Virus record (IMG/VR): IMGVR_UViG_3300037317_000075
Span: 1 to 32,235 of that record
Strand: one strand, 5' to 3'
DNA from: a virus
DNA length: 32,235 nucleotides
The notes beneath the pieces were generated by a model. The model was not told where the DNA came from and made no database searches. It was given only the letters and a program-made list of their open reading frames with translations. Every line of letters starts with the position of its first letter. Position 1 is the stretch's first letter. A program made the translations under genes and the position numbers. Shown here in pieces: positions 1 to 28,283 of this stretch.

Positions 1-236
1 CTGGCCCCGGTGGTCGAACTGGTAGCTGTGACCACAAAGGTGTAGACCAGTCCCTCCTGGGTCGAGGGAAGCGTAACCACAAGGTCAGCCGCATTCAAGC
101 GAATGACCTTGCCGCTGTCCTCAGGGGTCAATGTGGTGTTTTCGGTCAGCGTGACCATATTGGGATAACAGATACTCCCGCCAACCACCCAACTATCAGG
201 GCTTTCGGCGTGGTTGTCGCCTTCGTAGTAGGTCAT
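1..236 (-). CDS. Hypothetical virion-module protein; 3' end cut by the window edge
   Basis: ATG at 236..234 is preceded by AGGAGG 7 nt upstream. The frame is open to position 1 (MTYYEGDNHAESPDSWVVGG...). It starts 11 nt after the stop of the 247..714 ORF. It is not in the ORF track because it has no stop in the window. Confidence 0.55.
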   Translation of the reverse strand, partial: MTYYEGDNHAESPDSWVVGGSICYPNMVTLTENTTLTPEDSGKVIRLNAADLVVTLPSTQEGLVYTFVVTATSSTTGA

Positions 237-246
237 CAGATGCCTC

Positions 247-714
247 CTAGCTGCCCTGCGTCGTCAGGCTATCAGCGAGCGCCCCGTTGACCGATTGATG
301 CACAATGGTCGTCGCGTTGTCGGCGTAGGACACTGGCATGTGATGCCCGCGATACAGCACGGCGATAAACTCCCCGAAGGCAGCATTCGCGGTGCCGATG
401 GTCGTGGTAAGCGCGACGTACTGGCCCGGCGGGTGCTGCACGTCGATGACGACCAGATGGTTGTCGTCGTCATCCGCGATAGCCAGTGTGCCGTTCGATA
501 CATCCTTGCCGCCGGTGAAGTCGCTGGCGCCCGCTGCCTGGACAACGAAGTCCACGTCGGTCGTAGCAGCCAGGGTTTGCGTATTGACCAGGAAGGCCAC
601 ACCGTCGAAGCCGCCATCCTGGGCCATATCGACCACATCGGTCGTGATAGTGTTCGTGCCTGCGCCTACAGCGGCATTGACACGCAGGAACTTGCACGTT
701 TCAGTGAGAAGCAT
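247..714 (-). CDS. Hypothetical structural protein immediately downstream of the capsid gene
   Basis: 155-aa ORF, same strand and tight spacing with the capsid gene. Competing overlapping ORFs look like GC-rich frame artefacts. No family recognised. Confidence 0.6.
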   Translation of the reverse strand: MLLTETCKFLRVNAAVGAGTNTITTDVVDMAQDGGFDGVAFLVNTQTLAATTDVDFVVQAAGASDFTGGKDVSNGTLAIADDDDNHLVVIDVQHPPGQYVALTTTIGTANAAFGEFIAVLYRGHHMPVSYADNATTIVHQSVNGALADSLTTQGS

Positions 715-742
715 TGTTCTTATCCTTTCCTCGCGTTAGCCG

Positions 743-3124: not shown

Positions 3125-3140
3125 TGTGTCCTAATCCTGC

Positions 3141-3175
3141 AAAAAAAAGGCACCACCCCGCAATGGGATGGCACC
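3141..3175 (-). terminator. Intrinsic terminator between the tRNA and the capsid gene
   Basis: The - strand RNA is GGUGCCAUCCC-AUUGC-GGGGUGGUGCC followed by U8. All 11 stem pairs form only on the - strand, because three are G.U wobbles. Confidence 0.7.
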
Positions 3176-3277
3176 TATGGGCACCGTAAGGCGTTGCTCT
3201 TTCGTTGGTGCTCGTCTCTCCGAGCCGTCCCACCACTACCATGCCTCGTCAGGTGGCTACAATCACAAACAGGTCAT

Positions 3278-3352
<75 letters not shown>

Positions 3353-3585
3353 TCACGGATACCCGGGGGCTGGGAAAGCCATTACGCGCAACGTCTGTTC
3401 AAGGCCCCACTTAGCACGACGCTGACCCCCAGGTATCTTTGCGATAGCGCGTGCGTCTCCGATTTCGCTTGTTGCCGTCGAGGATGCCGGGAAAACATCA
3501 TACACAGAGAGGATGCTTCTTTGTTCCGACTAGGGTCAATTCCCCTTGTTGACGGGCACCCTATGACGTGCCCACGGCTGCGCTA

Positions 3586-3804
3586 TCAATCCCCCCCATT
3601 GTACACTATCCCTTCAACGAGCGCAAGCCCCTGTACCCCTTGCGTGTCGCGGAGAAGGGCCAGGAACTCTTGAATAGTGATGGATTGCCAGAGGTTCTTC
3701 CCGTGCCACCGCACCTTGAAATTCAGTGTGCCTGTGTCGGTGTCAACGTAGCACAGCGGCGCGATGTGTTCTTCCCCCTGAAGCGGAATGCGATTGCCTT
3801 GCAT
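3586..3804 (-). CDS. Small hypothetical protein translationally coupled to the tail fibre gene (possible fibre chaperone)
   Basis: ATG at 3804..3802 overlaps the tail-fibre stop TGA (3806..3804) as ATGA. 72 aa. No family recognised. Confidence 0.5.
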   Translation of the reverse strand: MQGNRIPLQGEEHIAPLCYVDTDTGTLNFKVRWHGKNLWQSITIQEFLALLRDTQGVQGLALVEGIVYNGGD

Positions 3805-5114
3805 CAACTCAACGTCTCCACTACTTGCACTTTGAGTACCTGCAACGTCCCGTCGCTGAGCACCTGCGCGACCTTTGTCCCCGCAGGCGCGTCATAGATT
3901 TCCAACAGCGATGCGGTCTGACCGCTCGTGCCTGTGACTGTGACAGGCACCATCCCGGCAGCGCTACTGCTCACGGAGGCATCCTGCTCAGGCAGCGCGC
4001 CGATATCGCCGGGGGCCAGGGGGTCACTGCCGCCGGTGGCATGCTCAGCAGCATGCGCGGGAAGGTCGCCAGGAACCAGTGCTCCGAACGCGACCGTGGC
4101 GGCCCCGGTTGCGCGTAGCACATGCCCACTGGTGAGTGTTGCAATCGCCGGGTAGAGGTCGAGCTTGGCCTTATCGCCGGAAGGCATAAAGCCATTCGCT
4201 CCGCTGGTCGCCGCCGCGTGCAAGGTGCCCCCTCCCCGGTCGCCGTGTACCGTATCGTCTATCTCTGGTAACTCGGCAGGGGTTAGCGCAGCGCTGGTCA
4301 CGTTGCCGCTCGCGTCACTTTGAAGCACCCCGGCAGCAAGCCCTGATACCTGAAGCGCCACGAGAATAGCCTTTGCGCTGGTCGTGTCCACTGCGAGCAC
4401 ACTCACCCCGGCGTCAGTCTGCACATCAAAGGCAGCAGCGTTGTTCACCGCGGGCTTGACGAGCACCTGGCTCAGCGCCAACCAGAGCGCTGCGCTATTC
4501 GGGGATACGTTGTCATCCTGGATAGCGCGCAACGTCCCGTCAAGGCTCTGTCCATCAGCGAGCTTGAGGTTTTCGACGCCTCCGGTTGCCGGAGCCGTGG
4601 GCGTCCACTGCGCCCCGTCCCATCCAAGAAGCTGCCCTGATGACGGCGCGCTGCTATCCACGTCGCGTCCCTGCAAGCGCACGACCGTGTTGCTCGCCGT
4701 GGTGCCAGTCACGTCACCGCTCAGTGTCGCGCCGAGGGTCTGCAATACCCACTGCCCCGCGCCGCTCGACCAGACATAAATCTGGTTGTTCGCGGGCGCA
4801 TCAGTGGTCACGCTGCGCCCTTGAATATAAGTTGCGTCCCGATACCCGGCAGGCATCCGCGCCTCGGCAATGGTTCCGGCAGTAATCTGGCTGGCATCGA
4901 ACGCGGCGCTGCCCAGGTCGGTCAGGCGGAGAATATCGTTCGCTGCTGCGGGCGCCGATGACACCTGCACCGCAGTCGTGCTGAGCAGGAGTGGAGTAGG
5001 GGTGCCCTCACCATCCTCGACCGCTGTGGGCGTGGCATTGGCCCCATCCGCGTTGGGCACCTGCAAGAGCCGCATGTACGTATCTTTGATGTTACTTCCA
5101 GCCAGTGTTCCCAT
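3804..5114 (-). CDS. Tail fibre / receptor-binding protein
   Basis: 436-aa G/A/T/S-rich ORF with N-terminus MGTLAGSNIKDTYMRLLQV. The HAAEHATGGSDPLAPGDIGA motif is of the kind common in phage fibre proteins. Confidence 0.65.
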   Translation of the reverse strand: MGTLAGSNIKDTYMRLLQVPNADGANATPTAVEDGEGTPTPLLLSTTAVQVSSAPAAANDILRLTDLGSAAFDASQITAGTIAEARMPAGYRDATYIQGRSVTTDAPANNQIYVWSSGAGQWVLQTLGATLSGDVTGTTASNTVVRLQGRDVDSSAPSSGQLLGWDGAQWTPTAPATGGVENLKLADGQSLDGTLRAIQDDNVSPNSAALWLALSQVLVKPAVNNAAAFDVQTDAGVSVLAVDTTSAKAILVALQVSGLAAGVLQSDASGNVTSAALTPAELPEIDDTVHGDRGGGTLHAAATSGANGFMPSGDKAKLDLYPAIATLTSGHVLRATGAATVAFGALVPGDLPAHAAEHATGGSDPLAPGDIGALPEQDASVSSSAAGMVPVTVTGTSGQTASLLEIYDAPAGTKVAQVLSDGTLQVLKVQVVETLS

Positions 5115-8030: not shown

Positions 8031-8802
8031 CCCGTACCGCTCGTCCGCGTGTTCGGTGCCTTGTCGGGTCGGGGGAAGGTCGGGAGCGCTCTGTGTCGGT
8101 GTCGGCAGCGTTACCATTGGCCTCAAGAACGGACTCCGTTTCGTCATCGGCAGCAGGCTCAGCAGCAGTATCGTCGCTGTGCGTAGGCGCGTCGTCATCG
8201 GTGTCGTGGGCATTGCCGTCTCCTTCGTCTGGTGCCAACGCTGACCGCATCAGCGCAATGGCCTCGCGGAGCACTGCCCGGTCTTCGTCGTCATCCTGGC
8301 TCGTTGACCGCATTGCGTCTTCCAGGTGCGCCAGGCGCGCCGCGAGTTCAGTTTGTCGCTGCTCGTGCTGCATGCGGTCAACCTGCTGTTCGATGCGCAG
8401 CAGCCGAACGGCATCGTCGGGCCCCTGCTGTTCGATGCGCAGCAGCCGAACGGCATCGTCGGGCCCCTGCTGACCAGAGGCGTCGTCGTCGTCGGTAGCA
8501 TCAGGCTCCGGCGCGGGCGGCGCAGCAGCCTCCTCGACCGGCACATCGAATCCGTTGATAATCAGTGCTATCGCTGGGGGCACACCGCTCTGTATCGCGT
8601 AGCGTACCAGGAACAGGTTCCCCAGGCGCGCTCGCTGCTCCTCAGTGAACGTCATCTGCGGCGCGGCAACCTGCTCGCTCAGCGCCTCCATTGCATCCAT
8701 CAGCGTATCAAGGATATCAGATACGTCTTCGGGGGAATAGCGCTCGCCAACATCAGGCAGTGATGGCCCCGTCCCGTTCCCGTTGTTCAGTGGGTCGCTC
8801 AC
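7969..8802 (-). CDS. Acidic, coiled-coil scaffold-like protein
   Basis: Start proposed at GTG 8802 with AAGGAG 6 nt upstream, inside the portal 3' end. An alternative is ATG 8700. The protein is D/E-rich with heptad-like segments and an exact 14-aa duplication. Its position after the portal is typical of scaffold genes. Confidence 0.45.
   Translation of the reverse strand: MSDPLNNGNGTGPSLPDVGERYSPEDVSDILDTLMDAMEALSEQVAAPQMTFTEEQRARLGNLFLVRYAIQSGVPPAIALIINGFDVPVEEAAAPPAPEPDATDDDDASGQQGPDDAVRLLRIEQQGPDDAVRLLRIEQQVDRMQHEQRQTELAARLAHLEDAMRSTSQDDDEDRAVLREAIALMRSALAPDEGDGNAHDTDDDAPTHSDDTAAEPAADDETESVLEANGNAADTDTERSRPSPDPTRHRTRGRAVRDERTDAGGAGDEGEPAEPVQ
8383..8466. repeat. Perfect 42-bp tandem duplication inside the scaffold-like gene
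   Basis: ctgctgttcgatgcgcagcagccgaacggcatcgtcgggccc occurs at 8383-8424 and again at 8425-8466. It encodes QQGPDDAVRLLRIE twice. Confidence 0.95.
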
Positions 8803-10360
8803 GGCGTACTCCTTGCAATCGCTCGGCCAGCGCTCTGGCGCGACGTGCCTGCGCGCTGGTTCCTCTTGCTGCTGGCCCATCCATCGCGGTTCGCACCCCT
8901 GGCACCTGCGCCAGCGCCAGTCCCACATCGAGGGGCAGTCCCGCATTGGTCGCCGCTTGCAGCACGGTCAACGCCGCGGTCACTTCGCGGCGCTGCTCAT
9001 CAGCCGTTTCGTCTTCGGGGGGCAGCCCCAGGCGCTCGCGAGCTTCGTTGCGCTTCACCGTGCCTGTCTCAATGTGATAGCCCAGGATATCAGATTGTGT
9101 GCGCCCCCCGGCCTGCATCTGCTCCTCAACGGCAGCAATGGCCTCCTCCGAAAAGCCGAGCCGCTTCAGCGCATAGACCAGCGGCAACCCCCGGTCAACC
9201 AGGGGCACCAGGCTCGCTGTCTCGGCCACCTGCGCCGCCTCATACGCTTGCATCTCCTGGGGGCGCCATTCCAGGCGCATTCCGAACAGCGCAAAGAACT
9301 CGTTCAGCGGCCTGCGATAATGCGCGTTCACATGAGGCACAATGGTGTGGTGCGTGAAATGCCACTCATCAACACTCGCGTTCGCATAGGTTGAGGCGTT
9401 GCTTTCCAGGAGGCTCTGCGGAATGCCGAAAGCAGCAGCAATGTCTGCACGGTTGATGCTGGTCAGGTCGGGCGCCGCGATGTCTTTGGGGCTCGTGCCG
9501 ACCTCGTGTGGCACAAAGTTATAACGCATCGCCATCGTGTTCCAGGCCCGTCCGACCCCGCCGGTCATGCGCTTCCAGAACCCGACAATGCCCTCAAGCT
9601 CTTGCTCGCTCGGTTGCGGCGTCATCCCGGCCCCGGTATTGCGCGTGTCCAGGAAGAACAGCACCGATTTTAGCGCGCCCTGCATGAAGAAGCGGCGCGT
9701 GTAGCGGCCCAGGTGATACAGCGTCTCCGCCGCGAACTGCGCCGCGTGCGCGGGGCCCACCCCCGGCCCGTCTTCGGCATCCAGGTTCATCGACCAGAAG
9801 TGGATAATGAATGCGTTGTTTGTGCCAGGATAAGAAGCCCCGCTGTTTCGGTTCTGATACGCAGGGTAGCTCTTGTTGGCCCCTCCGAATCGGCGAACGA
9901 AGTGCGTGAGTTCGCCGTTCTTGTTGTACTTCGGGGTGATGCTCTTCGGGAGCAGGCGCCGCGGGTAGTAGTTCCAGCCGTGTCGATTCGGTGTGACCAG
10001 CCAGTAAGCACTGCCCGTCGTTGCCAGGTCGCCTTCGGTGATGGCTAAGAGTTCCTTGAGGTCATCGGCCCACCGCTGATACTCTGCGCCTTCCCGGTCT
10101 AGTTCAGTGGGCCCCCGGCTCAGCGCGAACGGCAGCGACGCCACTGCACCGGCGCGCAAGGCCACAGCTCGGTGATACCACGCCACCCGGCGATATAACT
10201 CTGCCGGTGAAACCGTTGGCCTCGTGTCGCTGGCCGCGTCGCCGTCGCCCTGGCCGAGCAGGTCAGCAGCAGCCGGGTCGTCTATGCCAACCCCAACGCT
10301 CTTGACCCGAACCCCCTGGCCCCGACCATCGTGCTCTTCTACATTGACAACGCGCAGCAT
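8753..10360 (-). CDS. Portal protein
   Basis: 535-aa ORF. The N-terminal region ELYRRVAWYHRAVALRAGAVASLPF and the overall size and layout are typical of the Phage_portal family. ATG has AGGGG upstream. Confidence 0.8.
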   Translation of the reverse strand: MLRVVNVEEHDGRGQGVRVKSVGVGIDDPAAADLLGQGDGDAASDTRPTVSPAELYRRVAWYHRAVALRAGAVASLPFALSRGPTELDREGAEYQRWADDLKELLAITEGDLATTGSAYWLVTPNRHGWNYYPRRLLPKSITPKYNKNGELTHFVRRFGGANKSYPAYQNRNSGASYPGTNNAFIIHFWSMNLDAEDGPGVGPAHAAQFAAETLYHLGRYTRRFFMQGALKSVLFFLDTRNTGAGMTPQPSEQELEGIVGFWKRMTGGVGRAWNTMAMRYNFVPHEVGTSPKDIAAPDLTSINRADIAAAFGIPQSLLESNASTYANASVDEWHFTHHTIVPHVNAHYRRPLNEFFALFGMRLEWRPQEMQAYEAAQVAETASLVPLVDRGLPLVYALKRLGFSEEAIAAVEEQMQAGGRTQSDILGYHIETGTVKRNEARERLGLPPEDETADEQRREVTAALTVLQAATNAGLPLDVGLALAQVPGVRTAMDGPAARGTSAQARRARALAERLQGVRRERPTEQRERDGAITA

Positions 10361-10532: not shown

Positions 10533-10863
10533 GTTGCACCCGCATTGCCCCACCAGATACCACTGCAACTTGCACGGCCCGGCGGCTATCTGCCCACTCG
10601 TCTGCGTTGCACCCGCATTGCCTCACCAGATACCACTGCAACCGCGACGACGGCGCATGAGTTTCGGCAGTTCGACCTGTTGCACCCGCATTGCCTCACA
10701 GGATGCCGCTGCAACGTCAAGTTGATGGCAACGTATCTCGCAAACAGACGAGGTTGCACCCGCATTGCCTCACCAGATACCGCTGCAACTCCGACTCAAA
10801 TGTGCAAGGGGCGCGGCGGAAACTGTGTTGCACCCGCATTGCCTCACCAGATACCGCTGCAAC
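10533..10863 (-). CRISPR. CRISPR array, five 37-nt repeats and four 36-37-nt spacers (type V-like repeat)
   Basis: Repeats lie at 10533-10569, 10606-10642, 10679-10715, 10753-10789 and 10827-10863. The + strand consensus is GTTGCACCCGCATTGCCTCACCAGATACCGCTGCAAC. R4 and R5 are identical; R1, R2 and R3 carry 2, 1 and 3 substitutions. Spacers on the + strand: ttgcacggcccggcggctatctgcccactcgtctgc; cgcgacgacggcgcatgagtttcggcagttcgacct; gtcaagttgatggcaacgtatctcgcaaacagacgag; tccgactcaaatgtgcaaggggcgcggcggaaactgt. The strand is inferred from the flanking promoter and terminators. Confidence 0.9.
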
Positions 10864-10918
10864 CCTGGGTAATTTTCGCCGCATTCCAATGCCTGAGAAC
10901 CAGGCTGTTTCGCAACTC

Positions 10919-11040
10919 GTTGCAGCATTCGATTGGCAATGTACGGGCGGGGTGTTCTTGTACTTCTTCACCCCGTTGGTTCGCAGTTCGTCGAGCAGAC
11001 ACGCTGCCCTCCCTGCGCTGACAGCCAAAGCACTTGGCCC
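10919..11040 (-). ncRNA. Candidate tracrRNA (scaffold module A plus anti-repeat), co-transcribed with or processed from the array transcript
   Basis: The TSS is inferred ~7 nt after the extended -10 at 11047-11055. The 3' part on the - strand, GCCCGTACATTGCCAATCGAATGCTGCAAC, is complementary to the - strand repeat GTTGCAGC...GGCAATGCGGGT in blocks of 8, 7 and 4-5 bp. Confidence 0.5.
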
Positions 11041-11055
11041 ATATCTATTATACCA
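10944..11055. repeat. Copy A of a 112-bp duplicated structured module (partner at 11291-11402)
   Basis: The copies are collinear without indels at an offset of 347 bp. The 49-nt core gttggttcgcagttcgtcgagcagacacgctgccctccctgcgctgaca is identical (10975-11023 vs 11322-11370). Overall identity is roughly 85 percent by eye. Confidence 0.95.
11047..11055 (-). promoter_or_regulatory. Extended -10 promoter (TGGTATAAT) for module A and the CRISPR array
   Basis: The - strand reads TGGTATAAT. The homologous position in copy B also reads as an extended -10. Confidence 0.5.
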
Positions 11056-11157
11056 GCTTTTCGCTGTTGCCTTCGGCTGAGATTGATGTCACTTGCACCC
11101 GGTCAATGCATAGCGATGCTGCGCCCGGATGTCGCTGCGCCCGTTGAGCGCCATTCT

Positions 11158-11284: not shown

Positions 11285-11387
11285 AAAAAACGGGCAGGGT
11301 GTTCTGACACTTTTTCACCCTGTTGGTTCGCAGTTCGTCGAGCAGACACGCTGCCCTCCCTGCGCTGACACCCAGCGCACCTGGGCC
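11285..11387 (-). ncRNA. Candidate ~100-nt omega-RNA-like / tracr-like RNA (scaffold module B) directly 3' of the nuclease gene
   Basis: The extended -10 TGATACAAT (11394-11402) overlaps the nuclease stop codon. The RNA ends with the hairpin CAGGGUG-N14-CACCCUG followed by GCCCG and U6 (A-run 11285-11290 on the + strand). Confidence 0.45.
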
Positions 11388-11402
11388 AGAACCATTGTAT
11401 CA
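11291..11402. repeat. Copy B of the 112-bp duplicated structured module
   Basis: See copy A. The hairpin stem is AGGGTG/CACCCT here and GGGGTG/CACCCC in copy A (a compensatory G:C to A:T change), while the loops differ. Confidence 0.95.
11394..11402 (-). promoter_or_regulatory. Extended -10 promoter (TGATACAAT) for module B
   Basis: The - strand reads TGATACAAT. Its TGA is the stop codon of the nuclease gene. Confidence 0.4.
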
Positions 11403-12833
11403 CGACTTCGCACGCGGCTTATAGTTACTTCGTGCTTTGCGCTTCTTCCGCTCTTTCGGCTCGCGCCTGGCAATCTGCCGAGCCGCGTTGATGTCTACCT
11501 GGTTCGTTTCCCCGCACCCCTTGCATATCCAGGTGCGACTTGACCAGTTCATCTCCTGCCGGTGCCCGCAATGGAAGCAATCGGTGGTCGTATGTGCCGC
11601 GTCTACGGTCACGACCTCGCGGCCTGCTGCCCCGGCCTTTTGCCGGGTGAGTTCGCGCAGAGCCCCTGGTGAGGCCGATGCCATACTCCGATTGATATGC
11701 TGCTCGTGCTCGCGTGTCATATCGGCGGATTCACGCTCTTCGGCGCTCTTCTTGTGCCGCAACGCTGACCAGTCGGTGTCCTCGAACTTGATGGTATCTG
11801 CCGTGTCGCGCAACCTGTTCACCACATAGTCCTGGTTGTGCTTGCGCTGCCGCGCAACGCGCTGGTGCAGCCTTGCAATGCGCTGCTGGCGCCGCTGTGT
11901 GCGGTTGCTGGTCGGGTCGGCGGCTTTCGCGCCGTGTTCTTTGCCTTGCCGTTTGGCAGCGCCCTGCCGCCGCTTCAAGCGCTTCGGGTCAATCAAACGT
12001 TGATAGTGAGCCAGCTTCGCCGCACTCTGCTTCAGGCCATCGGGGACACAGTAGATACGCCCATCACTCACCGCCGCAACCTGCTGACCAGTGCCCACAT
12101 AGGCCCCGTTCAAGTCCACACCAATTGTATGTCCTGTCTCTGGCAACGGCTCCGGCGCGGCCTCGCGGCATGTGACATTCAGATACCAGCCATCTGCTTT
12201 CTTGACAATGCTGGTTGTGCGCATCTCTGCCTCGGCTGAGAAGGCCCGGTGATACCGGAAGCGCAGAGAGCCAAGCGTCCTCTTCGCGCCGTGCATCGTG
12301 AGTGCCGCGTATTTACCATCGACAACAAAGTCGCTCGGCTTCTTCGGGAAGTCGATGCCCACGTCGCTGGCCCGGTCTGCCCAGCGCGCCCTGGCGTCTT
12401 TGCGGGGTTTCTTGCCGGGGTTCGCCGCGTTCCATGCACGTCGGCGACGCGTCTCTATCTGTGCGTCGCCCCAGGCTTTCTCGACGCGCTCAATGAGCGC
12501 CGTCGCCGTGTCATACGGGAGACGCTTCCAGTGCATATACCGCTCATCATTGCGCCGCGCTGTGTACTCGGCGTTCTGTGCATACGCAGTCGGCTCATAG
12601 GTGCAATCAATGGGGGCTCGGTCGGGGCGCCATGTCGGGTCAGGGAATTGCAACCCGGCTGCATTCAACGGCAACTCTGCCCGCTCGAATGCTTCGCGGG
12701 TGCGCTGCGCGAACCGGCGCTGTTTAATGCACCAGCGCTGCAAATCGAGCAGCGTCTCCTGCCACTCGGCCAGCAGCGCTTCCTGCGCTGCGGTCGGATA
12801 CGCACGGTATTGATAGGTCTTCATCGTTGGCAT
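11400..12833 (-). CDS. TnpB / Cas12f-like RNA-guided RuvC nuclease (477 aa), candidate effector of the adjacent array
   Basis: The N-terminus KTYQYRAYPTAAQEALL is TnpB/OrfB-like. RuvC-I is IGVDLNG, RuvC-II is IKFEDTD, the zinc finger is CFHCGH...CKGCGE, and RuvC-III is QVDINAARQIA. A basic C-terminal tail follows. ATG at 12833 overlaps the upstream stop (TGATG). Confidence 0.85.
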   Translation of the reverse strand: MPTMKTYQYRAYPTAAQEALLAEWQETLLDLQRWCIKQRRFAQRTREAFERAELPLNAAGLQFPDPTWRPDRAPIDCTYEPTAYAQNAEYTARRNDERYMHWKRLPYDTATALIERVEKAWGDAQIETRRRRAWNAANPGKKPRKDARARWADRASDVGIDFPKKPSDFVVDGKYAALTMHGAKRTLGSLRFRYHRAFSAEAEMRTTSIVKKADGWYLNVTCREAAPEPLPETGHTIGVDLNGAYVGTGQQVAAVSDGRIYCVPDGLKQSAAKLAHYQRLIDPKRLKRRQGAAKRQGKEHGAKAADPTSNRTQRRQQRIARLHQRVARQRKHNQDYVVNRLRDTADTIKFEDTDWSALRHKKSAEERESADMTREHEQHINRSMASASPGALRELTRQKAGAAGREVVTVDAAHTTTDCFHCGHRQEMNWSSRTWICKGCGETNQVDINAARQIARREPKERKKRKARSNYKPRAKS

Positions 12834-13495
12834 CAAAGATACTCCTGGATTTCAGGGTCTATACCAAATGTCTCCGACGCGATTATTGCATTATCAGGCG
12901 GCGCCCTCTGGATAACCTGCGTGATATCCATATATACGCCGAATATCTCTTCATCCAGGTTCGCCCCCTGCTGCCCCAGCAGCGTGCTGGCCTTATCATA
13001 CAATCGCCGCAACGAATTGCCTACTGCATTCAGGCGATACGCAAGCCAGGAAACCTCGCTGTCATAGTCAAATATCTTCATCTTGAGATGCCGCCTACTT
13101 ACATCCAGATAGCAGACAAGCCACAGGAGTCCGTGCTTTTCGTATGGGCCAAACCACGCATGCTCGCTGAGGTATGCCTTATCAGGCGGCTCGTTGGGAC
13201 GTTCGAGGAGGTCAAAGAGACGCTGCTGAATGCTTCTCAGCGTCGTTTCTGACGTCTCTTCGTTCTCAGCGGGCTCGTAGAGCGTTCGGTATGTGTCTGT
13301 CTCAATCTCCTCCAGCTCCGCCCATTTGTCGAGCTGCGCGGCCAGCCATCGGGCAAGCCGCAGGTCGGTGCATACAAAGAGCTCATGGGTATCGCCCTGC
13401 CAGTCATGTTGAACAACCGCATACCCGTATGGTTCGTGACGTGTGAAATAGCTTTGTGAGGCCATGCTTCTATCCTTGTGGTTCGTGTGAGCCAT
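12833..13495 (-). CDS. Unknown protein, first gene of the nuclease operon
   Basis: 220-aa ORF translationally coupled to the nuclease gene. An alternative start is ATG 13465 with AAGGA upstream. The region 12840-13100 is visibly AT-richer than its surroundings. No motif recognised. Confidence 0.6.
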   Translation of the reverse strand: MAHTNHKDRSMASQSYFTRHEPYGYAVVQHDWQGDTHELFVCTDLRLARWLAAQLDKWAELEEIETDTYRTLYEPAENEETSETTLRSIQQRLFDLLERPNEPPDKAYLSEHAWFGPYEKHGLLWLVCYLDVSRRHLKMKIFDYDSEVSWLAYRLNAVGNSLRRLYDKASTLLGQQGANLDEEIFGVYMDITQVIQRAPPDNAIIASETFGIDPEIQEYL

Positions 13496-13714: not shown

Positions 13715-15037
13715 CTACCCAAAGACGACCCCGGCCCCCCTGGTGCCTGCGTAGGTTTTCACGGCTAACCAGGCCAGAGCGAGGCTCATCACCTGGTCAT
13801 CGTGTTGCCCTTCGGGGTGCCCATAGCGGATAAGTCCCGATGGCAATCGCTCACTCTCGTAGGCCAGGAGTTCATTGATAAGCCCCTCGTCAGGCAGGAT
13901 GGCAAGCTGCTCAAGCTCGAAGGCTTGAATCAGACTATCAATGAGTATCTTCTTGCTTTGCGGCGATGTCCAGAACGGTATCACCGGGTAGCCCTTCCCC
14001 TGCAACTCTTCAATGTTCGGCCAGCCCATCGCGTTGGCCTCGATGACCAGGTGAGTGGCGTGGAATCGCTCATGCGCGCCGATGATGCGCGTGCGCTGCG
14101 TGGCATATTCGAGTTGTCTGAAACGGTCCAGGTACACCAGTTCATTCAGCGTCGTATCGATGACCGTCACGACGGTCCAGTCATCGGTGCGTGCCAGGTC
14201 TACGCCGATGATATACTGGTGGCCTTCAATGGCCCGCTCTTGCCACTCGGCATGGGCAGCCTCGCGCACCCGGTGAAAGACGGCGCCTTCATCTTCGAGA
14301 AACTGCGCGAATATCTCTTGTTGCAGGTCCCGCTCGGTCAGGTCTTCGGACAGGCTGTCTATCTCAGTCGGGTCAATGTGCGGATTCGTGTAGCTGCTCA
14401 TCTGCCAGCTTTGCCACTCGCTGCCCCGATACGGGTTATCATCGGCCCCTTTGCGATAGAGTTGCCAGAAGTAATCCCGGCCCCTGGGCGTCGAAAACCA
14501 CCAGCAGTCGCCAAGCTCATCCATCAACGTCGGACGCATGACCTGCTGCCAGGCCAGGCCCAGCTTCGTGACCTGCGCGGCTTCGTCAAAGACCACGCGC
14601 CGATAGTGCCGACCACGCGGGCGCTCTGGATACTCCATTGACCAGAGTTCGATAATCCCGCCGGTACGCAGCGATAATCGGTGGTTCTGCTCGCTCTTGC
14701 TGGCAATGTGTCCGGCAAGGAGCCCCTTCAGCTCGGTCCAGAACTCATTCATCGCCTTGTTGGTCGGGGCGCAATACGCCGCCCGGCCCCCACCGACATA
14801 CGCCGTTTCGCAGAGCAAACGCTTCGCCAGTTCGGTCTTCCCGAAACGCCTACCGAGCGCGCACACGTTGAAGCGGCGCGCCTCACGCAACACGCGCCGC
14901 TGCCCTTCGTGCAGGTCCAGCAACGGCAGGTCGTCGAGGTGTGCCTGGCGCGCCGTGGCAGGCGTCGCCGGGCGCCGCACTGTAAGAGGCGTCGTCGGGC
15001 GCCGAAGCCGTTGACTAGACTGCTTGACTATCGTCAT
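13715..15037 (-). CDS. terL: Terminase large subunit
   Basis: 440 aa. Walker A is GRRFGKTE and Walker B is RRVVFDEAAQ. The C-terminal nuclease-like half contains IGVDLAR and VIEANAMG. Confidence 0.85.
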   Translation of the reverse strand: MTIVKQSSQRLRRPTTPLTVRRPATPATARQAHLDDLPLLDLHEGQRRVLREARRFNVCALGRRFGKTELAKRLLCETAYVGGGRAAYCAPTNKAMNEFWTELKGLLAGHIASKSEQNHRLSLRTGGIIELWSMEYPERPRGRHYRRVVFDEAAQVTKLGLAWQQVMRPTLMDELGDCWWFSTPRGRDYFWQLYRKGADDNPYRGSEWQSWQMSSYTNPHIDPTEIDSLSEDLTERDLQQEIFAQFLEDEGAVFHRVREAAHAEWQERAIEGHQYIIGVDLARTDDWTVVTVIDTTLNELVYLDRFRQLEYATQRTRIIGAHERFHATHLVIEANAMGWPNIEELQGKGYPVIPFWTSPQSKKILIDSLIQAFELEQLAILPDEGLINELLAYESERLPSGLIRYGHPEGQHDDQVMSLALAWLAVKTYAGTRGAGVVFG

Positions 15038-15515
15038 CGTCGTAATCCAGAAGGGGCAGCAGGCGGTCCAGGTTCAGCGTGTGCGCTTCGAGCTCAGCGG
15101 CGACCTGGAAGGTTCGTAGCACCGTGTTCAGGGTTGCTACATTCAGCGGGAGCGACTTCGATTGCAGCGCTTCTGCGACCTGGGAGAGCATGGCCCGGCC
15201 TACTGCGTGCAACTCTTTGGCAGTCTTATTGTAGCGCTCCTGGTGGGCTTCGATTTCGCGGATATGCGCTTCGGCTGCTGCGCGCTGCCGCTGTCGGGCC
15301 AGGTGCGCGTCGTGGGCTGCGACACGCTGCTGCCAGTGATGCTGCGATGACCAGCGGCTTAACAGCTGTCTACTTTTGCCCAACTTTTGCCCAACTGCGG
15401 CCAGGCTGCGCCCAGGGCCCATCTCGGCATATGCCATGAACGCCTCGTGCGCCCTGGCGCTTTCGTTGGGGAGTCGCTCCAACGGAGTCTCAGGGTTCCA
15501 TGCCAGGTCAGTCAT
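15015..15515 (-). CDS. terS: Terminase small subunit-like HTH protein
   Basis: The HTH segment is GRSLAAVGQKLGKSRQLLSRWSSQHHWQQR, and the gene sits directly upstream of terL. ATG at 15515 overlaps the methylase stop (ATGACTGA). The track start at 15536 is TTG. Confidence 0.6.
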   Translation of the reverse strand: MTDLAWNPETPLERLPNESARAHEAFMAYAEMGPGRSLAAVGQKLGKSRQLLSRWSSQHHWQQRVAAHDAHLARQRQRAAAEAHIREIEAHQERYNKTAKELHAVGRAMLSQVAEALQSKSLPLNVATLNTVLRTFQVAAELEAHTLNLDRLLPLLDYDDDDSQAV

Positions 15516-16767
15516 CGTCTCGCTCGGCCAATTCAACGCACAGGCCCTCCGCCTCAGCGCGCTGCAACGTCACGTCCACATAGCGAGGCTCTATCTCTAT
15601 CCCGGCCAGCACACGGCGCAGGCGGTGCGCGGCGATAAGCGTGGGGCCACTGCCCAGGAAACCATCGAAGACCAATGCCCCCTCGTCGCTGCTCTTTTCG
15701 ATACAGCGCTGAATAAGCTCCACCGGTTTGGGGGTCAAATGCTCGGTTGCTGGGGGGCGCCCCGCTTGCCAGAGGTCCCGGTCGCGCTTGCCGCGCAGGG
15801 CGTGCCCTGGCCGAGACGCAAAGATACACACCTCCCACGACGGCGCATAGGTCGCCGTCGGGTCGCCTTTGCTGTACTCGATTTTGTCCCATACAATGAC
15901 GTTTCTGACCTTCTCCGGCAGCGCTTCTATCCACTTATGCATCACATCCCAGCGTGACCAGATGTACCACGCTTCTGCCGGAGGAAACGCTGCGAGCAGG
16001 CGGTGTGGCTGGGGCATGGCATCGTTTGCCAGGTCAGCGTGGCGGGGGCGCTCAATGTGCCGGTTGTAATTGATGCCATACGGGGGGTCGGTCACGACCA
16101 GCGCAACCGGCGCACCCTGCACCACGCGGGCAACCGCAACCGGGTCGGTACTGTCAGCGCAAAGGATGCGGTGTGTCCCATCGATAAGCCACAGGTCGCC
16201 TCGGCGCACCCGGCACGGCGCATCCTCGTCGGGGGCGAACCCATCACCCCCAGCCCCCGGCGCGGACTCTTCGTCGGCCAGCCCCAGCAGCAGGTCAAGG
16301 TCATCGCCAGACACTGACACCGGGAGTTCTTTGTGTTCGGCCAGGCCAGTCAACACATCAAGATACGCCGATTCATCCCATAGATTGGCGATGTCAACCG
16401 CAGTATAGGTGCCCCCGGCCAAGACCAGATTGTTGTGGTCAATGGCATACGCCTCTGCCGTCTCCTGACTCAAGGCATCCACGCCGAACAGCACCGGCAC
16501 CTGCCACTCTCCCTCAGCAATGCCCAGGCCCCTGGGCAGGTCGTGCCCCTGGGTCTGCATCCAGGCCAACGCCTCGGCGCGCCCATTGCCCTCGACCAGC
16601 CCTCCCTGGCCCGCATTCAATGCGGGCTCGTACTTGAGCGGGTCTTTGAACCCATACAACGCAATCGAGCGCGCAATGGCCCCCAGGTCGTGTTGCTTCG
16701 GGTTGCGCTCCCATTGCCGAGCCTGGCTGAGCGGAATATATCGCAGGGTCAATGTATCAGTCGTCAT
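15508..16767 (-). CDS. ParB-like nuclease domain fused to an N6A/N4C DNA methyltransferase
   Basis: The N-terminus WERNPKQHD is ParB/Srx-like. The catalytic motif IV is VTDPPYG, followed later by the SAM motif FDGFLGSGPT (beta-class order). Confidence 0.8.
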   Translation of the reverse strand: MTTDTLTLRYIPLSQARQWERNPKQHDLGAIARSIALYGFKDPLKYEPALNAGQGGLVEGNGRAEALAWMQTQGHDLPRGLGIAEGEWQVPVLFGVDALSQETAEAYAIDHNNLVLAGGTYTAVDIANLWDESAYLDVLTGLAEHKELPVSVSGDDLDLLLGLADEESAPGAGGDGFAPDEDAPCRVRRGDLWLIDGTHRILCADSTDPVAVARVVQGAPVALVVTDPPYGINYNRHIERPRHADLANDAMPQPHRLLAAFPPAEAWYIWSRWDVMHKWIEALPEKVRNVIVWDKIEYSKGDPTATYAPSWEVCIFASRPGHALRGKRDRDLWQAGRPPATEHLTPKPVELIQRCIEKSSDEGALVFDGFLGSGPTLIAAHRLRRVLAGIEIEPRYVDVTLQRAEAEGLCVELAERDDD

Positions 16768-16769
16768 AA

Positions 16770-16857
16770 AAATTCACCGAATCTTGCGCGGACGTCGGCC
16801 ATGTCGCAAGTATCCTGTTTTGGCTCTTCGGTTCACCCCCACGTGCGTGGGGACGTC
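16770..16857 (-). CRISPR. Type I-E-like mini-array: one intact 29-nt repeat, a 32-nt spacer and one degenerate repeat; no cas genes nearby
   Basis: On the - strand the repeat is GACGTCCCCACGCACGTGGGGGTGAACCG (16857..16829): stem CCCCAC/GTGGGG, 4-nt loop, 3' GTGAACCG. The spacer is AAGAGCCAAAACAGGATACTTGCGACATGGCC (16828..16797, exactly 32 nt). The degenerate repeat GACGTCCGCGCAAGATTCGGTGAATTTT (16796..~16770) abuts the methylase ATG. Confidence 0.7.
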
Positions 16858-16918
16858 ACGACGTTGAGCGTGCAAGCCGCCTGACTTCAGTCAGTGCGGT
16901 TTTCGATATCCCTCGCTT

Positions 16919-16927
16919 ATTATAGCA
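16919..16927 (-). promoter_or_regulatory. Extended -10 promoter (TGCTATAAT) upstream of the mini-array and methylase
   Basis: The - strand reads CTATGCTATAAT ~55 nt upstream of the solitary repeat. Confidence 0.45.
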
Positions 16928-16945
16928 TAGCGGGGCGGAAATCAG

Positions 16946-17167
16946 CTATGCCGAGAGCCCCTCGCGCCGATAATACATCACCAGCGCGCCGAGCAAGATG
17001 GGATAGTCCCCGATGGGAAATGCGGCACCATACTCGACGATGAGCCGAGCCGCGTTGTCAAAGTGCCGCGCTCGCACAGCGAGCGGGAGCCCCCCCAGGT
17101 CGGCCTGGTCAAGCTCCCGATAAATCGCTGCCCACTTGCGCGGATGCGGGCGGGGCCTTACGCCCAT
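16946..17167 (-). CDS. Hypothetical small protein
   Basis: 73-aa ORF whose start overlaps the end of the upstream ORF. No motif recognised. Confidence 0.45.
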   Translation of the reverse strand: MGVRPRPHPRKWAAIYRELDQADLGGLPLAVRARHFDNAARLIVEYGAAFPIGDYPILLGALVMYYRREGLSA

Positions 17168-17640
17168 AACAGATTGCTCTCGTGCATATCCAACACCCCC
17201 TGCCCTGGCATGCTTACGCGGTAGGTCGTGCTCTGATGCATCGTCCCATCCTCGCCTGCAATGTCTACCGTCGTACCGTTGAGCACCATGACCGGCACGC
17301 CAGTCAGTGTCGTTGCAACGCGACCTTCGTAAACCAGATAATCAATGTGGCGCAGCCAAATCGCCGCACACGCGACGCGAGCGCTACTCCGATGATACAC
17401 CTGGTCAATCAGGTCGGCCAGGTCGCTCAGCGTGCGCTGCTGATGCCAGTGCGCTTCCGTGTTCAGCAGAAAGCCGTAGTCTCGGAGAACCTCCATACCT
17501 TCGCTCCACAGCGTGGGCCGGGGGCCTCCAAATGGGGGCATTGGCAGCAGATATGCTTCGAGGATAGCCTGAACGCGCTCCATTGACCTCTCCGAAACGT
17601 ATGTCAGTGTCCCATCCGGCAACATACAAAGGAAAAACAT
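17158..17640 (-). CDS. Hypothetical protein (160 aa)
   Basis: Start set at ATG 17640 (MFFLCMLPDG) with GAAGGGCG upstream. The longer track ORF runs through a tRNA-like element and looks spurious there. Confidence 0.55.
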   Translation of the reverse strand: MFFLCMLPDGTLTYVSERSMERVQAILEAYLLPMPPFGGPRPTLWSEGMEVLRDYGFLLNTEAHWHQQRTLSDLADLIDQVYHRSSARVACAAIWLRHIDYLVYEGRVATTLTGVPVMVLNGTTVDIAGEDGTMHQSTTYRVSMPGQGVLDMHESNLLWA

Positions 17641-17695: not shown

Positions 17696-17799
17696 TGGTG
17701 GAGGTGGGCAGAGTTGAACTGCCGTGCTACACGTCGGTGCCCTCGCGGGCCTGGTTGCTTCGCTGTCGAACAGTGCGCCTTCCAGCTACACACAACCCC
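17696..17799 (-). other. tRNA-like element (T arm, acceptor 3' strand, CCA) in the 5' leader of the first early cassette
   Basis: The - strand 3' part reads GGCAG-TTCAACT-CTGCC-CACCTCC-A-CCA. A possible 5' partner is GGGGTTG at 17799..17793, with a D-arm-like GTGT-AGCTGGAAGGC-GCAC. I could not fold an anticodon arm, and the length (~104 nt) is too long for a canonical tRNA. Confidence 0.3.
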
Positions 17800-17864
17800 G
17801 TCGCCTAGTCGAAACCAAATCACCCCCGTCATTCCCCGTCAAAACCATCTCTCTCACACTTCTT

Positions 17865-25674: not shown

Positions 25675-26366
25675 ACCGCAGCGACCAGGAAGAGCAGTAT
25701 ATCAATCACTGGCGCATCATTGGCACCATTATTGAGCCACCGAAGGAATTCCCGGCACTCGGCACCGAACCGGCCAGCATGCGCTGCATCATTCAAGACG
25801 ACGGCAACCCCGACCACCACATCACGCTGCGGTGGGACGACCCCGCCGAGTGGGACGCCGTAGCAGCCGAACTCCACGAAGGCAACCGGGTCTATGTCGA
25901 AGGAGCGCTGCAACTCTCCGTATTCACGCCGAAGGGGCAGGGCCGAACGCGCAAGTCTATCCTGTTCAATGTCGTTCGTCGCTGGCAGGTCGAGCCCCCC
26001 GACAACGCACTGAACGAACTGGTGCTGGTTGGGCGCCTGCGCTACGCCCCGGCTCGCGAATACATCGAATCCGCCGACCGGCTGAGCGCTCGGCTCGTCA
26101 TCGAATGGCCCGAAGAAAAACGAGGCAAGCAGCGCTATACCGTGGCGCAGGCGTATCTCTATGACGACCTGGCAGACGAAGCACTGCTCGCAATGGAAGA
26201 AGGCGATATGGTGTTCGTGGTCGGCCTGGCCTACCGCCACGTATGGGAAGAAGAAGGCAAGCACCGGGTCGTCGTGCAGGCATTCGAGGCAGGCATCGGC
26301 ATCGAAAACGAAGAACGGCTCTGGCAAACACAGATGCGCCTGCACGAACCCGCCGGTCAAATCTAG
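25671..26366 (+). CDS. SSB-like protein with two OB-fold-like halves
   Basis: 231 aa with an ATGA overlap with the upstream gene. Two similar halves are each built as N.(W/L).(I/L)(I/V)G.(I/L)......V.(V/G)(A/L) (INHWRIIGTI...RVYVEGAL and NELVLVGRL...MVFVVGLA). Confidence 0.45.
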   Translation: MNRSDQEEQYINHWRIIGTIIEPPKEFPALGTEPASMRCIIQDDGNPDHHITLRWDDPAEWDAVAAELHEGNRVYVEGALQLSVFTPKGQGRTRKSILFNVVRRWQVEPPDNALNELVLVGRLRYAPAREYIESADRLSARLVIEWPEEKRGKQRYTVAQAYLYDDLADEALLAMEEGDMVFVVGLAYRHVWEEEGKHRVVVQAFEAGIGIENEERLWQTQMRLHEPAGQI

Positions 26367-27829
26367 CATTCCAGGATGGCGCGCATGTGCCGCACGATAG
26401 CCTTGTGCCCATCCTGGTCACTCATCCACGTTCCACCAAGACCTCGCACCGTAGGCGCGCAGCCCCAATACTGCTCAGGCAATGGTCTGCCCAGCCAGCG
26501 CTGCGCTTCTTCGTGTTCCGTGCCTCCACCGTACAGGTGCAGCCTCCACGCATGCGCCGGTATCGATGTGCGCCCAGGTACTTCTGGCCGAGCCCACGCA
26601 TCAAACCCGAGCCCTTTCCGCCACCATTGCCCATCAAAGAACCAGCCATCTTCGTCAGGACGTTCGGCCTGTGGCGCTGCGCCGACCACGCCGATGCCTG
26701 CGGGATTGCGGAGGTTCTGCTCCGCATTGTCGGTGCGCTGGCTCCAAAATGAACTGAGGCAATCGGTTTCGTGCGCCATCTGCGCGGCCATCACCAGCGG
26801 GTTCACGCCGGTGCGCCGCGCCCAGGCAAACAGAGCAGGCACAATACCATACGCGATGTCATGTTCAGTGTATTCGCCGGTGGTGCGCTGAAGGAGATAT
26901 CTCGTCACCTGCTCCGGCGTGACGTTGTTCTCTCCCAGGATGGGCGTGTCCTCGCTGATGTGCTGCCCCGCCAGCGGCGATGCGTGCGCCTCCGGCACAA
27001 ATCCGCTGCCGTCAGCGAGCCAGAGCCAGGGCCCATTGCCTTTATCGACGATGGCGCCGACGACAACCTCGTCGCCAGGGTGCTTCTCAACGACCTGTAC
27101 CCCTCGTGATTGAGGAGCCTGCCGAACAGCCGTGGGCGCGTGGATAAGGTAGCGCACCGGCGGGTCGAGCAGGACTTCCCGGTGCCCGCCTTCAGGGGGG
27201 TCGGCCTCCGCTATCTTACGTGCCGCATACTCCTTGATGACGCCGATGTAGTAGGCATCCTCGATAGCATCGCCAGGGCAGCTCGGCTTGTTATAATCCC
27301 GATGGCTCGATATGCCCCCAGGCCCAACCGTATGGGCCAGCTCGAATGTGCCGAGCTTGCAGTACAATGCCCACACCGCTCCTGCGACGTTCGTTTCGAC
27401 TGCCAGGGGCCAGCGCTTTTCGCTGTAGTTCCCGACAACCTCAATACCGATGGAGTAATCTTTGCCGCCTTCAGGGATGTTGCCGTTGCCGCCTGCCGCG
27501 TGGATGCCCTGGTTATACATCGGCGTCATCAGCCAGACCCATCGCTCATCAATGAACAAATGCGGCCCCTTGCGCCAGCCCAGGCGCTCATAGAACGTCC
27601 GAATATTGAGCAGTTGTTCCAGTCGCTTGTGGTAGATGGCGTCTTCGCTGAGCCCGTCTTCGTTCGCGTCCCATAACCAGCCTCCATTGTTCGCATAGAC
27701 CGTTCCCGGCACGGCTGTGTGGTGCAGTATCACAAACGTGGGTGGCAGCGAACCGAACTGGTAGCTCTCGACGTAACGCTCGAACTCATAGAGCCGCAGC
27801 CCTCGCCCGATGCAAAGGAAGTCACTCAT
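26363..27829 (-). CDS. Endolysin: N-terminal N-acetylmuramoyl-L-alanine amidase (Amidase_2/PGRP type) plus C-terminal glucosaminidase-like domain
   Basis: The amidase signatures are ILHHTA...GPHLFID...SIGIEVVGNY...SHRDYNKPSCPG. The C-terminal NPLVMAAQMAHETD resembles the glucosaminidase/LytD motif. ATG at 27829 overlaps the holin-like stop. Confidence 0.8.
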   Translation of the reverse strand: MSDFLCIGRGLRLYEFERYVESYQFGSLPPTFVILHHTAVPGTVYANNGGWLWDANEDGLSEDAIYHKRLEQLLNIRTFYERLGWRKGPHLFIDERWVWLMTPMYNQGIHAAGGNGNIPEGGKDYSIGIEVVGNYSEKRWPLAVETNVAGAVWALYCKLGTFELAHTVGPGGISSHRDYNKPSCPGDAIEDAYYIGVIKEYAARKIAEADPPEGGHREVLLDPPVRYLIHAPTAVRQAPQSRGVQVVEKHPGDEVVVGAIVDKGNGPWLWLADGSGFVPEAHASPLAGQHISEDTPILGENNVTPEQVTRYLLQRTTGEYTEHDIAYGIVPALFAWARRTGVNPLVMAAQMAHETDCLSSFWSQRTDNAEQNLRNPAGIGVVGAAPQAERPDEDGWFFDGQWWRKGLGFDAWARPEVPGRTSIPAHAWRLHLYGGGTEHEEAQRWLGRPLPEQYWGCAPTVRGLGGTWMSDQDGHKAIVRHMRAILEC

Positions 27830-28283
27830 AGTCGGCTTCCCCCCCAGGCGCGGCCAACTGTGCCTTCGCCTGCTTTGGATAGTCATGCACAAACTGACTC
27901 ACCAGATAGGTCAGGCCCCCCGATAGCACGACCCATATGGAGTATTCCCCGGCGACAACGAGCGCCAGCACTGCGTTCGCGGCGGTGCCGAGTACGATGC
28001 TCAGCACCGCCTGCGCCGTCTTCGGCGCGAACTTGCGAATGTAGAACGTTTCGCCGTAGGTTTCGATGCCGCGCAGCCAATACCATAGCCACTTGCGCCA
28101 TCGCGGGGAGGCAAGGTATTCGTTGGGCGTTCGGGGCCAGGGCACAAAGTTCTTGAGCCAGTCAAAGAGACGGCTCGCAGGCCAGCCCGTTGCCATCGCA
28201 GTCGCAGCATAGGCCAGGAGCATCATTGTATCGGCATAGGGGTCGGTCGGTACGGGAACGCTATTCCATTCAGGCCCAATCAT
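27822..28283 (-). CDS. Holin-like membrane protein
   Basis: 153 aa from ATG 28283 (GAGAGGAAGACG upstream). It has at least three hydrophobic segments and sits directly upstream of the endolysin. Confidence 0.5.
   Translation of the reverse strand: MIGPEWNSVPVPTDPYADTMMLLAYAATAMATGWPASRLFDWLKNFVPWPRTPNEYLASPRWRKWLWYWLRGIETYGETFYIRKFAPKTAQAVLSIVLGTAANAVLALVVAGEYSIWVVLSGGLTYLVSQFVHDYPKQAKAQLAAPGGEADYE

Follow-up and report, generated by a model that had tools for sequence, protein, structure and literature searches.

Can a CRISPR array that is borne by a bacteriophage and has no cas genes at its side be a living one, to which spacers are still added, or is it a fossil or a decoy? Cas-less viral arrays are known; to our knowledge, direct evidence for a living bacteriophage copy is scarce. 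The question is raised by a short intergenic locus in the IMG/VR virus record IMGVR_UViG_3300037317_000075, of which we analysed positions 1 to 32,235 (the whole of this 32.2-kb stretch, 60% G+C and encoding tailed-phage functions, is called the window below). A preliminary description, made from the letters alone, had seen there a mini-array of type I-E character, fused to the 5' end of a methylase gene and probably served by borrowed host proteins. We find that the locus is probably a genuine, leader-equipped phage mini-array of type I-E, working with the Cas proteins of the host: near-identical strains of the phage carry arrays of one to four spacers that differ on the leader side, which argues for a real and changing immune memory.

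The array occupies a 178-nt gap between an open reading frame (ORF) of 73 codons and the ATG of the methylase gene at 16767, and all its features are on the - strand. It begins with an extended -10 element, TGCTATAAT (16927-16919), followed by a leader which runs for 61 nt from that element to the first repeat (16918-16858; it ends ...CGT). Then come an intact 29-nt repeat, GACGTCCCCACGCACGTGGGGGTGAACCG (16857-16829), a 32-nt spacer, AAGAGCCAAAACAGGATACTTGCGACATGGCC (16828-16797; S1 hereafter), and a degenerate terminal repeat, GACGTCCGCGCAAGATTCGGTGAA (16796-16773), in which the hairpin is lost; TTTTT and the methylase ATG follow. Promoter, repeat, spacer and degenerate repeat thus all lie where the preliminary description had them, including the extended -10 at about 55 nt upstream, since some 54 nt of the leader would be transcribed. 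The -10 element is identical in all the population variants presented below, and S1 and the degenerate repeat are common to all of them, S1 being the trailer, or 'anchor', spacer. The motif TGNTATAAT is present four times in the window against 0.18 expected (about 20-fold enriched), which suggests that it is in use by this phage. A two-hexamer promoter scan made no call at the array promoter because there is no good -35. The leader holds a small hairpin (CTGAC-TGAA-GTCAG), and its end at the repeat junction reads CAACGTCGT/C. Another hairpin, of 8 bp (GGCATAGC ... GCTATGC; 16924-16952, - strand), lies across the stop codon of the 73-codon ORF and runs into the -10 element, taking in its TG and first bases.

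The intact repeat is unique in the window even when up to three mismatches are allowed (none expected by chance). It consists of a CCCCAC/GTGGGG stem, a GCAC loop and an GUGAACCG tail, and its hairpin is present in the minimum-free-energy fold. Judged by alignment score alone the degenerate repeat is weak, being equalled by 3.7% of random 29-mers; the heptamer GACGTCC, however, has just two occurrences in the window, both strands counted: one in each of the two repeats, exactly 61 nt apart. If the degenerate repeat is counted, the locus therefore has the periodicity of a CRISPR array (about 61 bp, unique spacers of about 32 nt, at least two repeats), and the variants have it with two to four intact repeats. 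No CRISPR or other RNA family of Rfam fits the array region.

To which CRISPR type does the repeat belong? Its 24-nt core, CCCCACGCACGTGGGGGTGAACCG, made up of the hairpin and the 5' handle, is found unchanged in at least 120 bacterial genome stretches, nearly all of them 61-bp-spaced arrays. The genomes include Chloroflexota, Planctomycetota, Armatimonadota, Bacillota, Thermodesulfobacteriota and Myxococcota, among others, and 83% of the 1640 spacers of these genomic arrays are 32 nt long. Genes for Cas7e (PF09344), Cas5/Cas5e, Cas6e (PF08798), Cas1 and the type I-E Cas2 (PF09707) adjoin such arrays, as seen in loci L026, L055, L062 and L001. Like the repeats beside type I-E cas genes, the phage repeat has a hairpin and, behind it, an 8-nt tail with AACCG at its end, and the assignment to type I-E made in the preliminary description is borne out by this identity of cores. 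The likeness to the Thermus repeat, which had been put at about 22 positions of 29, is real and was understated: the arrays of the Thermus thermophilus megaplasmid match at 25 of 27 positions and those of Thermomicrobium roseum at 25 of 26. Among the host arrays listed, the variation between hosts is confined to the first five bases of the repeat. The conserved part is the one contacted by Cas6e (hairpin) and by Cas5e (5' handle), as known from the E. coli and Thermus Cascade complexes. The phage's own five bases, GACGT, are present in one of about 107 host arrays examined, that of a Myxococcales metagenome-assembled genome (L081), which is also the only one among them to have the exact phage 29-mer. 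In the metagenome collection, no multi-copy array with the exact 29-mer was found; the sole match was another mini-array (L146/L147, see below). One of the genomic type I-E arrays with the same core, in a Planctomycetia metagenome-assembled genome, lies beside a gene in which Cas5 is fused to an HNH nuclease domain (L062, 324-1439).

The order of promoter, leader and repeat in the phage is the order of host loci (cas2, leader, repeat), and at -2 and -1 of the leader-repeat junction the phage has the G and the T that 49 host type I-E leaders conserve most strongly. At the sequence level, the array is thus equipped with a leader and a predicted promoter in host-array orientation. What it does not have is cas genes: as the preliminary description had stated, no type I-E cas family was detected with Pfam among the 40 ORFs of the window, which may be only part of the phage genome. 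The set that makes a complete type I-E locus (cas3, cse1, cse2, cas7, cas5, cas6e, cas1 and cas2) does not adjoin the array. Judged from its sequence, the locus is therefore no complete system but a virus-borne orphan array of type I-E.

Other contigs, too, have small arrays with repeats of this family. A viral contig (L169, about 3740-3830) has a mini-array with two repeats and one 32-nt spacer, and so has an unassigned element recovered from two metagenomes (L146, 3109-3200; L147, 2046-2140), where the array adjoins genes for a 973-aa N6 methylase and a HIRAN-domain protein. The phenomenon therefore recurs in viral and unassigned contigs.

Is the array a fixed relic, or does it change? Variants of the locus were retrieved by exact sequence, with the methylase and the 73-aa product as queries; they are short contigs from several samples of one Joint Genome Institute (JGI)/SRA project, and their flanks are 99.1-99.8% identical to the window. 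The source samples are JGI 3300037341, 3300037504, 3300037726, 3300037727, 3300037796, 3300037858, 3300038620 and 3300038621, and SRR12689518, SRR12689551, SRR12689552, SRR12689553, SRR12689837 and SRR12689843; the literature yielded nothing under sample or run accessions. With R for an intact repeat, R' for a copy with a flipped loop and Rdeg for the degenerate terminal repeat, the window reads R-S1-Rdeg (one spacer), L135 reads R'-Sa-R-S1-Rdeg (two spacers), L137 reads R-Sb-R-Sc-R-S1-Rdeg (three spacers) and L138 reads R-Sd-R-Se-R-Sf-R-S1-Rdeg (four spacers). No two of the six extra spacers are alike, and each is exactly 32 nt long, as is S1, so that the arrays differ by whole units of 29 + 32 nt. 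All the extra units are found between the leader and S1, while S1 and the degenerate repeat always come last. Variation at the leader end, with a common trailer spacer, is thus seen across the window, L135, L137 and L138, a combination by which active CRISPR arrays are commonly recognised. Four further contigs break off within the leader or the first repeat, as a branch of the assembly graph at that place would lead one to expect. Other exact-protein look-ups, made for further variants, gave contigs that stop short of the array or products that are not on record. Chimeric assembly of the multi-spacer contigs is unlikely because in each of the variants phage sequence lies on both sides of the array.

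Each added repeat is a copy of the 29-mer that the phage itself carries, with its rare GACGT; two of these copies are blemished. In L135 the newest repeat (151-179) has its loop reverse-complemented, GTGC replacing GCAC, with the 5' GACGT kept; in the last intact repeat of L138 (706-735) the G-run is longer by one G. Genuine mutation, a different origin or sequencing error could each account for these blemishes.

The favoured reading of these facts is that the array is written and read by the host machinery. An extended -10 promoter of the sigma-70 type would transcribe the leader, the repeat-spacer units and then the methylase and terminase genes. By analogy with known type I-E systems, every intact repeat would be cleaved by host Cas6e behind GUGGGG, with GUGAACCG remaining as the 5' handle, and the resulting CRISPR RNAs (crRNAs) of 61 nt would consist of 5'-GUGAACCG, the 32-nt spacer and GACGUCCCCACGCACGUGGGG-3'. 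Loaded on host Cascade, they would guide Cas3 to competing phages or other mobile elements whose DNA they match. Exclusion of such competitors is the most likely use of the array; it is established for the mini-arrays of archaeal viruses (PMC6858448) and was put forward for Thermus Lalka phages (bioRxiv 10.64898/2026.04.20.719267). Spacers placed between two intact repeats, Sa to Sf of the sister strains, would give normal 61-nt crRNAs. S1, with a hairpinless repeat behind it, would stay attached to the methylase messenger RNA and is probably a poor guide; as the fixed trailer spacer it is also the one least likely to yield a normal crRNA. The window form would then be a minimal state, with one intact repeat, the fixed trailer spacer and the degenerate repeat, probably producing little or no mature crRNA; we infer that it is still competent for spacer acquisition. 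New spacers are most simply accounted for by host Cas1-Cas2, which would add 32-nt units at the leader-repeat junction of the phage and duplicate the phage's own repeat in doing so. Dependence on host Cas machinery, as proposed in the preliminary description, is supported by the identity of the repeat core with that of type I-E arrays and by the unit-wise changes at the leader end. The further proposal, that S1 targets a competitor, found no backing since no protospacer was recovered for it in the collections searched.

The same leader-side position of the new units could have another origin. Spacers may have been captured by recombination between the phage repeat and the repeats of a host type I-E array: after integration or a double crossover, excision at a different repeat would carry host spacers off, in the manner of specialised transduction. 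We consider this origin possible, though doubtful, and under it the use of the array may be the same as in the favoured reading. With one intact ground-state repeat, recombination likewise places new units between leader and S1, and it has been proposed for spacer gain in the leaderless mini-arrays of bacteriophages (PMC6858448). The loop-flipped repeat of L135 could be a host variant, which would favour this route. A junction of the kind it calls for is seen in a second viral record (L001, IMGVR_UViG_3300008002_000368, 1-4528), where type I-E cas1 and cas2 (PF09707), a short leader and a single repeat copy are joined to phage scaffold and major head genes as if a phage had inserted at the repeat; this contig may represent a prophage that has inserted at a CRISPR repeat, a phage equipped with an adaptation module, or a chimera. 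Against recombination stands, with modest weight, that the added repeats carry the phage 29-mer with the GACGT that is so rare in hosts, kept even in the L135 copy, and that the metagenome scan found no multi-copy array of that exact 29-mer. Of similarly modest weight is that the phage spacers were found neither among the 1640 host spacers nor in the fetched host loci. Moreover, the phage array has a leader and a promoter, and crossovers within 29 bp are inefficient.

Several observations weigh against acquisition through host Cas1-Cas2 and use by host Cascade. With one intact repeat in the ground state, leader-adjacent insertion is, as just said, also what recombination with a host array predicts, and two of the new repeats (L135, L138) are imperfect. 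Compared with 55 host leaders, that of the phage shows no detectable homology apart from the GT junction. Of the 1640 host spacers, none matches the phage window over more than 15 nt, and no host type I-E system was identified in the same community. Lastly, none of the seven spacers had a protospacer in the collections searched. Neither a protospacer nor a self-match was present in the window and all fetched loci, and there was no protospacer in 107 kb of sibling-strain contigs. A search of IMG/VR with S1, Sa, Sb and Sd, every sixth position being left free, was negative, and GenBank phages and PLSDB plasmids gave best matches at chance level (E of about 0.2-0.9). A scan of JGI metagenome contigs with Sd gave no match and did not find L138 itself, from which it follows that the source samples are not in that collection. 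Since the large collections are evidently without this phage or its samples, neither the window nor L138 having turned up in them, the protospacer negatives are weak ones.

In the window form, the locus resembles a different kind of element. An RNA anti-CRISPR (Racr) acts as a decoy: a single repeat would titrate Cas6e, its handle and the downstream RNA would nucleate aberrant complexes of Cas5e and Cas7e, and the type I-E immunity of the host would be weakened during infection. Solitary repeat units are known to inhibit type I-E, I-F, I-C and V-A systems (Camara-Wilpert et al., 2023; PMC10651486), and, as in RacrIE1 and RacrIE2 of that study, the window has one intact type I-E repeat behind a predicted strong promoter in a viral genome, with the Cas6e hairpin and the 5' handle conserved. 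As the published SRUFinder rule counts a second copy only at 90% identity or more, our locus would be called a solitary repeat. The same repeat does exist as a true solitary unit with an immediate terminator: in a 40-kb viral contig (L002, IMGVR_UViG_3300037067_016800), the repeat core (10808-10833, - strand) is followed by the intrinsic terminator GCCCCGCC-ATTAC-GGCGGGGC-TTTT, the layout of a candidate RNA anti-CRISPR. The phage locus, unlike these units, has a spacer and a repeat remnant at exact CRISPR spacing, for which a decoy has no need, and sister strains with two to four unique spacers, which a decoy leaves unexplained. Pfam and PHROG revealed no acr gene near it, and no terminator follows the repeat. 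A decoy is in our view an unlikely function.

The position of the array next to the methylase gene suggests yet another possibility. The methylase start is 5 nt past the degenerate repeat, and the GGTGAA of that repeat, 5-6 nt ahead of the ATG, is the ribosome-binding site of the gene. As there is no terminator-like site in 16400-17300, and hence none separating array from methylase, the two are probably co-transcribed, the array forming the 5' part of a methylase-terminase transcript. The array could then be a cis-acting element of the 5' untranslated region (UTR), or a crRNA-like regulator of the operon, acting by messenger stability, attenuation or Cascade-mediated repression. Besides this fusion, S1 is fixed in all variants, as a regulatory sequence might be, and crRNA-like regulators beside defence genes have been described (bioRxiv 10.1101/2024.12.27.630466). 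A UTR element would not be expected to vary by whole 61-nt units with unrelated 32-nt inserts, and the predicted stability of the region's fold is unexceptional (z = -1.8). S1 was considered as a regulator of a window promoter and rejected: its best partial match in the window (19 of 32 positions) has GGC at the position of the protospacer-adjacent motif (PAM) and, with five other sites at 18 of 32, is at chance level. Within the window, S1 thus does not look like a pseudo-spacer that is partly complementary, beside a PAM, to a promoter. We regard a purely regulatory role as very improbable.

The decoy and the UTR element might be combined with the array in a two-state element, although we would give this scheme little credence. 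In its collapsed state, with one repeat, the locus would soak up Cas6e or Cascade, and the Cas6e site in the 5' UTR would tie expression of the methylase and terminase genes to the type I-E Cas proteins of the host; from there host Cas1-Cas2 could expand it into an offensive array.

Could the guides serve a protein of the phage itself? The window encodes a 478-aa TnpB/Cas12f-like protein (11400-12836, - strand; Pfam Cas12f1-like_TNB and OrfB_IS605), and in Thermus Lalka phages arrays with 29-bp type I-E-like repeats guide the phage nuclease Cas12r (Trofimova et al., 2026; bioRxiv 10.64898/2026.04.20.719267). There the arrays lie directly behind cas12r and the repeat, GTTTCTCCCGTGCGCGCATGGAGGCACCG, is diverged, whereas the window repeat is a canonical host type I-E sequence and no effector gene adjoins it. 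The TnpB/Cas12f-like gene is 4 kb away, past the methylase and terminase genes, and its product shows no similarity to LalCas12r (E = 0.46). It adjoins an array of its own, with five 37-nt repeats, GTTGCAGCGGTATCTGGTGAGGCAATGCGGGTGCAAC, and four spacers of 36-37 nt (10533-10869, - strand, followed by a terminator). This locus, at 10.5 kb, is separate and its repeat unrelated to that of the mini-array, just as the preliminary description had it. Guidance of the TnpB/Cas12f-like protein by the type I-E array is thus a most improbable arrangement. Downstream of the TnpB/Cas12f-like gene are two 122-nt elements, 84% identical (11290-11411 and 10943-11064, - strand), the second of them behind TGGTATAAT (11047-11055). 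Neither the window nor the sibling contigs contain a match to the spacers of the 37-nt array.

How does the locus compare with virus-borne arrays already described? Among its closest counterparts are the leader-bearing mini-arrays of the portogloboviruses SPV1 and SPV2 of Sulfolobales, with spacer turnover and targeting of sibling viruses (Medvedeva et al., 2019; PMC6858448). As in SPV1 and SPV2, the array is intergenic in a viral genome and cas-less, has a promoter-bearing leader and repeats of the host-system type, and carries spacers that differ among close strains of one population; reliance on the adaptation and interference modules of the host is presumed in both cases. The differences are that SPV1 and SPV2 are archaeal viruses, whereas the window is from a tailed bacteriophage (terminase, portal and capsid genes) with a type I-E repeat, and that here up to four spacers and a degenerate terminal repeat are joined to the methylase-terminase operon at its 5' end. 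Sibling-strain targeting, the hallmark of the SPV arrays, was not found in the 107 kb of sibling contigs. The phage and prophage mini-arrays catalogued by Faure et al. (2019) are, according to the accounts given in PMC6858448 and PMC10651486, leaderless, and recombination was proposed for them. From these accounts, host-type repeats without cas genes, often just downstream of a promoter, would be common to that catalogue and our locus; a leader with a promoter and stepwise growth at the leader end in a population would set the present array apart. With the Lalka arrays it shares 29-bp repeats, spacers of about 32 nt, a common last spacer below differing upstream ones and the lack of phage adaptation genes; in Lalka, adaptation was ascribed to the type I-E Cas1-Cas2 of the host (bioRxiv 10.64898/2026.04.20.719267). 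The Cas12-like gene of our phage is unrelated to cas12r and has its separate array.

The rest of the window is that of a tailed phage. The array stands among genes for a capsid-family protein (743-3124), a portal (8753-10360) and an amidase-type lysin (26363-27892), all identified with Pfam, and for the large (13715-15037, - strand; Terminase_6C/6N) and small (15015-15536, - strand; phrog_6299) terminase subunits, which makes it virus-borne. The methylase (15508-16767, - strand) is a ParB-N/N6_N4 DNA methyltransferase, with matches to PF01555 and to the DNA methyltransferase and ParB-like families of PHROG. The terminase genes are downstream of it and in the same orientation as the array, which places the array inside the phage packaging operon. 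The 73-aa ORF upstream of the array (16946-17167, - strand) and a 112-aa ORF near it have no family match in Pfam or PHROG. A megablast search of GenBank phages with 10 kb around the locus found no relative; in IMG/VR the methylase has no relative and those of the large terminase are at most 43% identical, so that IMG/VR offers no comparative series.

Two features further upstream deserve mention. Between 17848 and 23434, an intergenic unit of about 90-120 nt is dispersed in 8-11 copies; on the - strand it consists of TTGAC-N17-TACAAT, a conserved untranslated stretch and an GAAGGGAG ribosome-binding site, and it looks like a repeated cassette of early promoter and 5' UTR placed ahead of the small genes of the region. 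Directly downstream of one copy is an intergenic Rfam match to transfer-messenger RNA (17696-17827, - strand; 54.2 bits for a gathering score of 47). It is merely 132 nt long, with the acceptor and T-arm ends present and 61 nt replacing about 303 nt of the model, and ARAGORN made no call there.

To conclude, a leader, a fixed trailer spacer and the stepwise addition of 32-nt spacers are seen together in one natural population of the phage. It offers a clean natural case for asking whether the type I-E Cas1-Cas2 of a host writes into phage DNA, and also a system for asking whether host Cascade is turned on the competitors of the phage. With its own TnpB/Cas12-like gene and a separate array, the same phage may combine owned and borrowed CRISPR functions. 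What repeat-finding rules call a 'solitary repeat' can be a collapsed array, which bears on the counting of RNA anti-CRISPR candidates. If the two-state scheme were true, many phage 'solitary repeats' would be resting arrays, and this phage would run two CRISPR arms, one borrowed, of type I-E, and one of its own, TnpB/Cas12-like with the 37-nt array.

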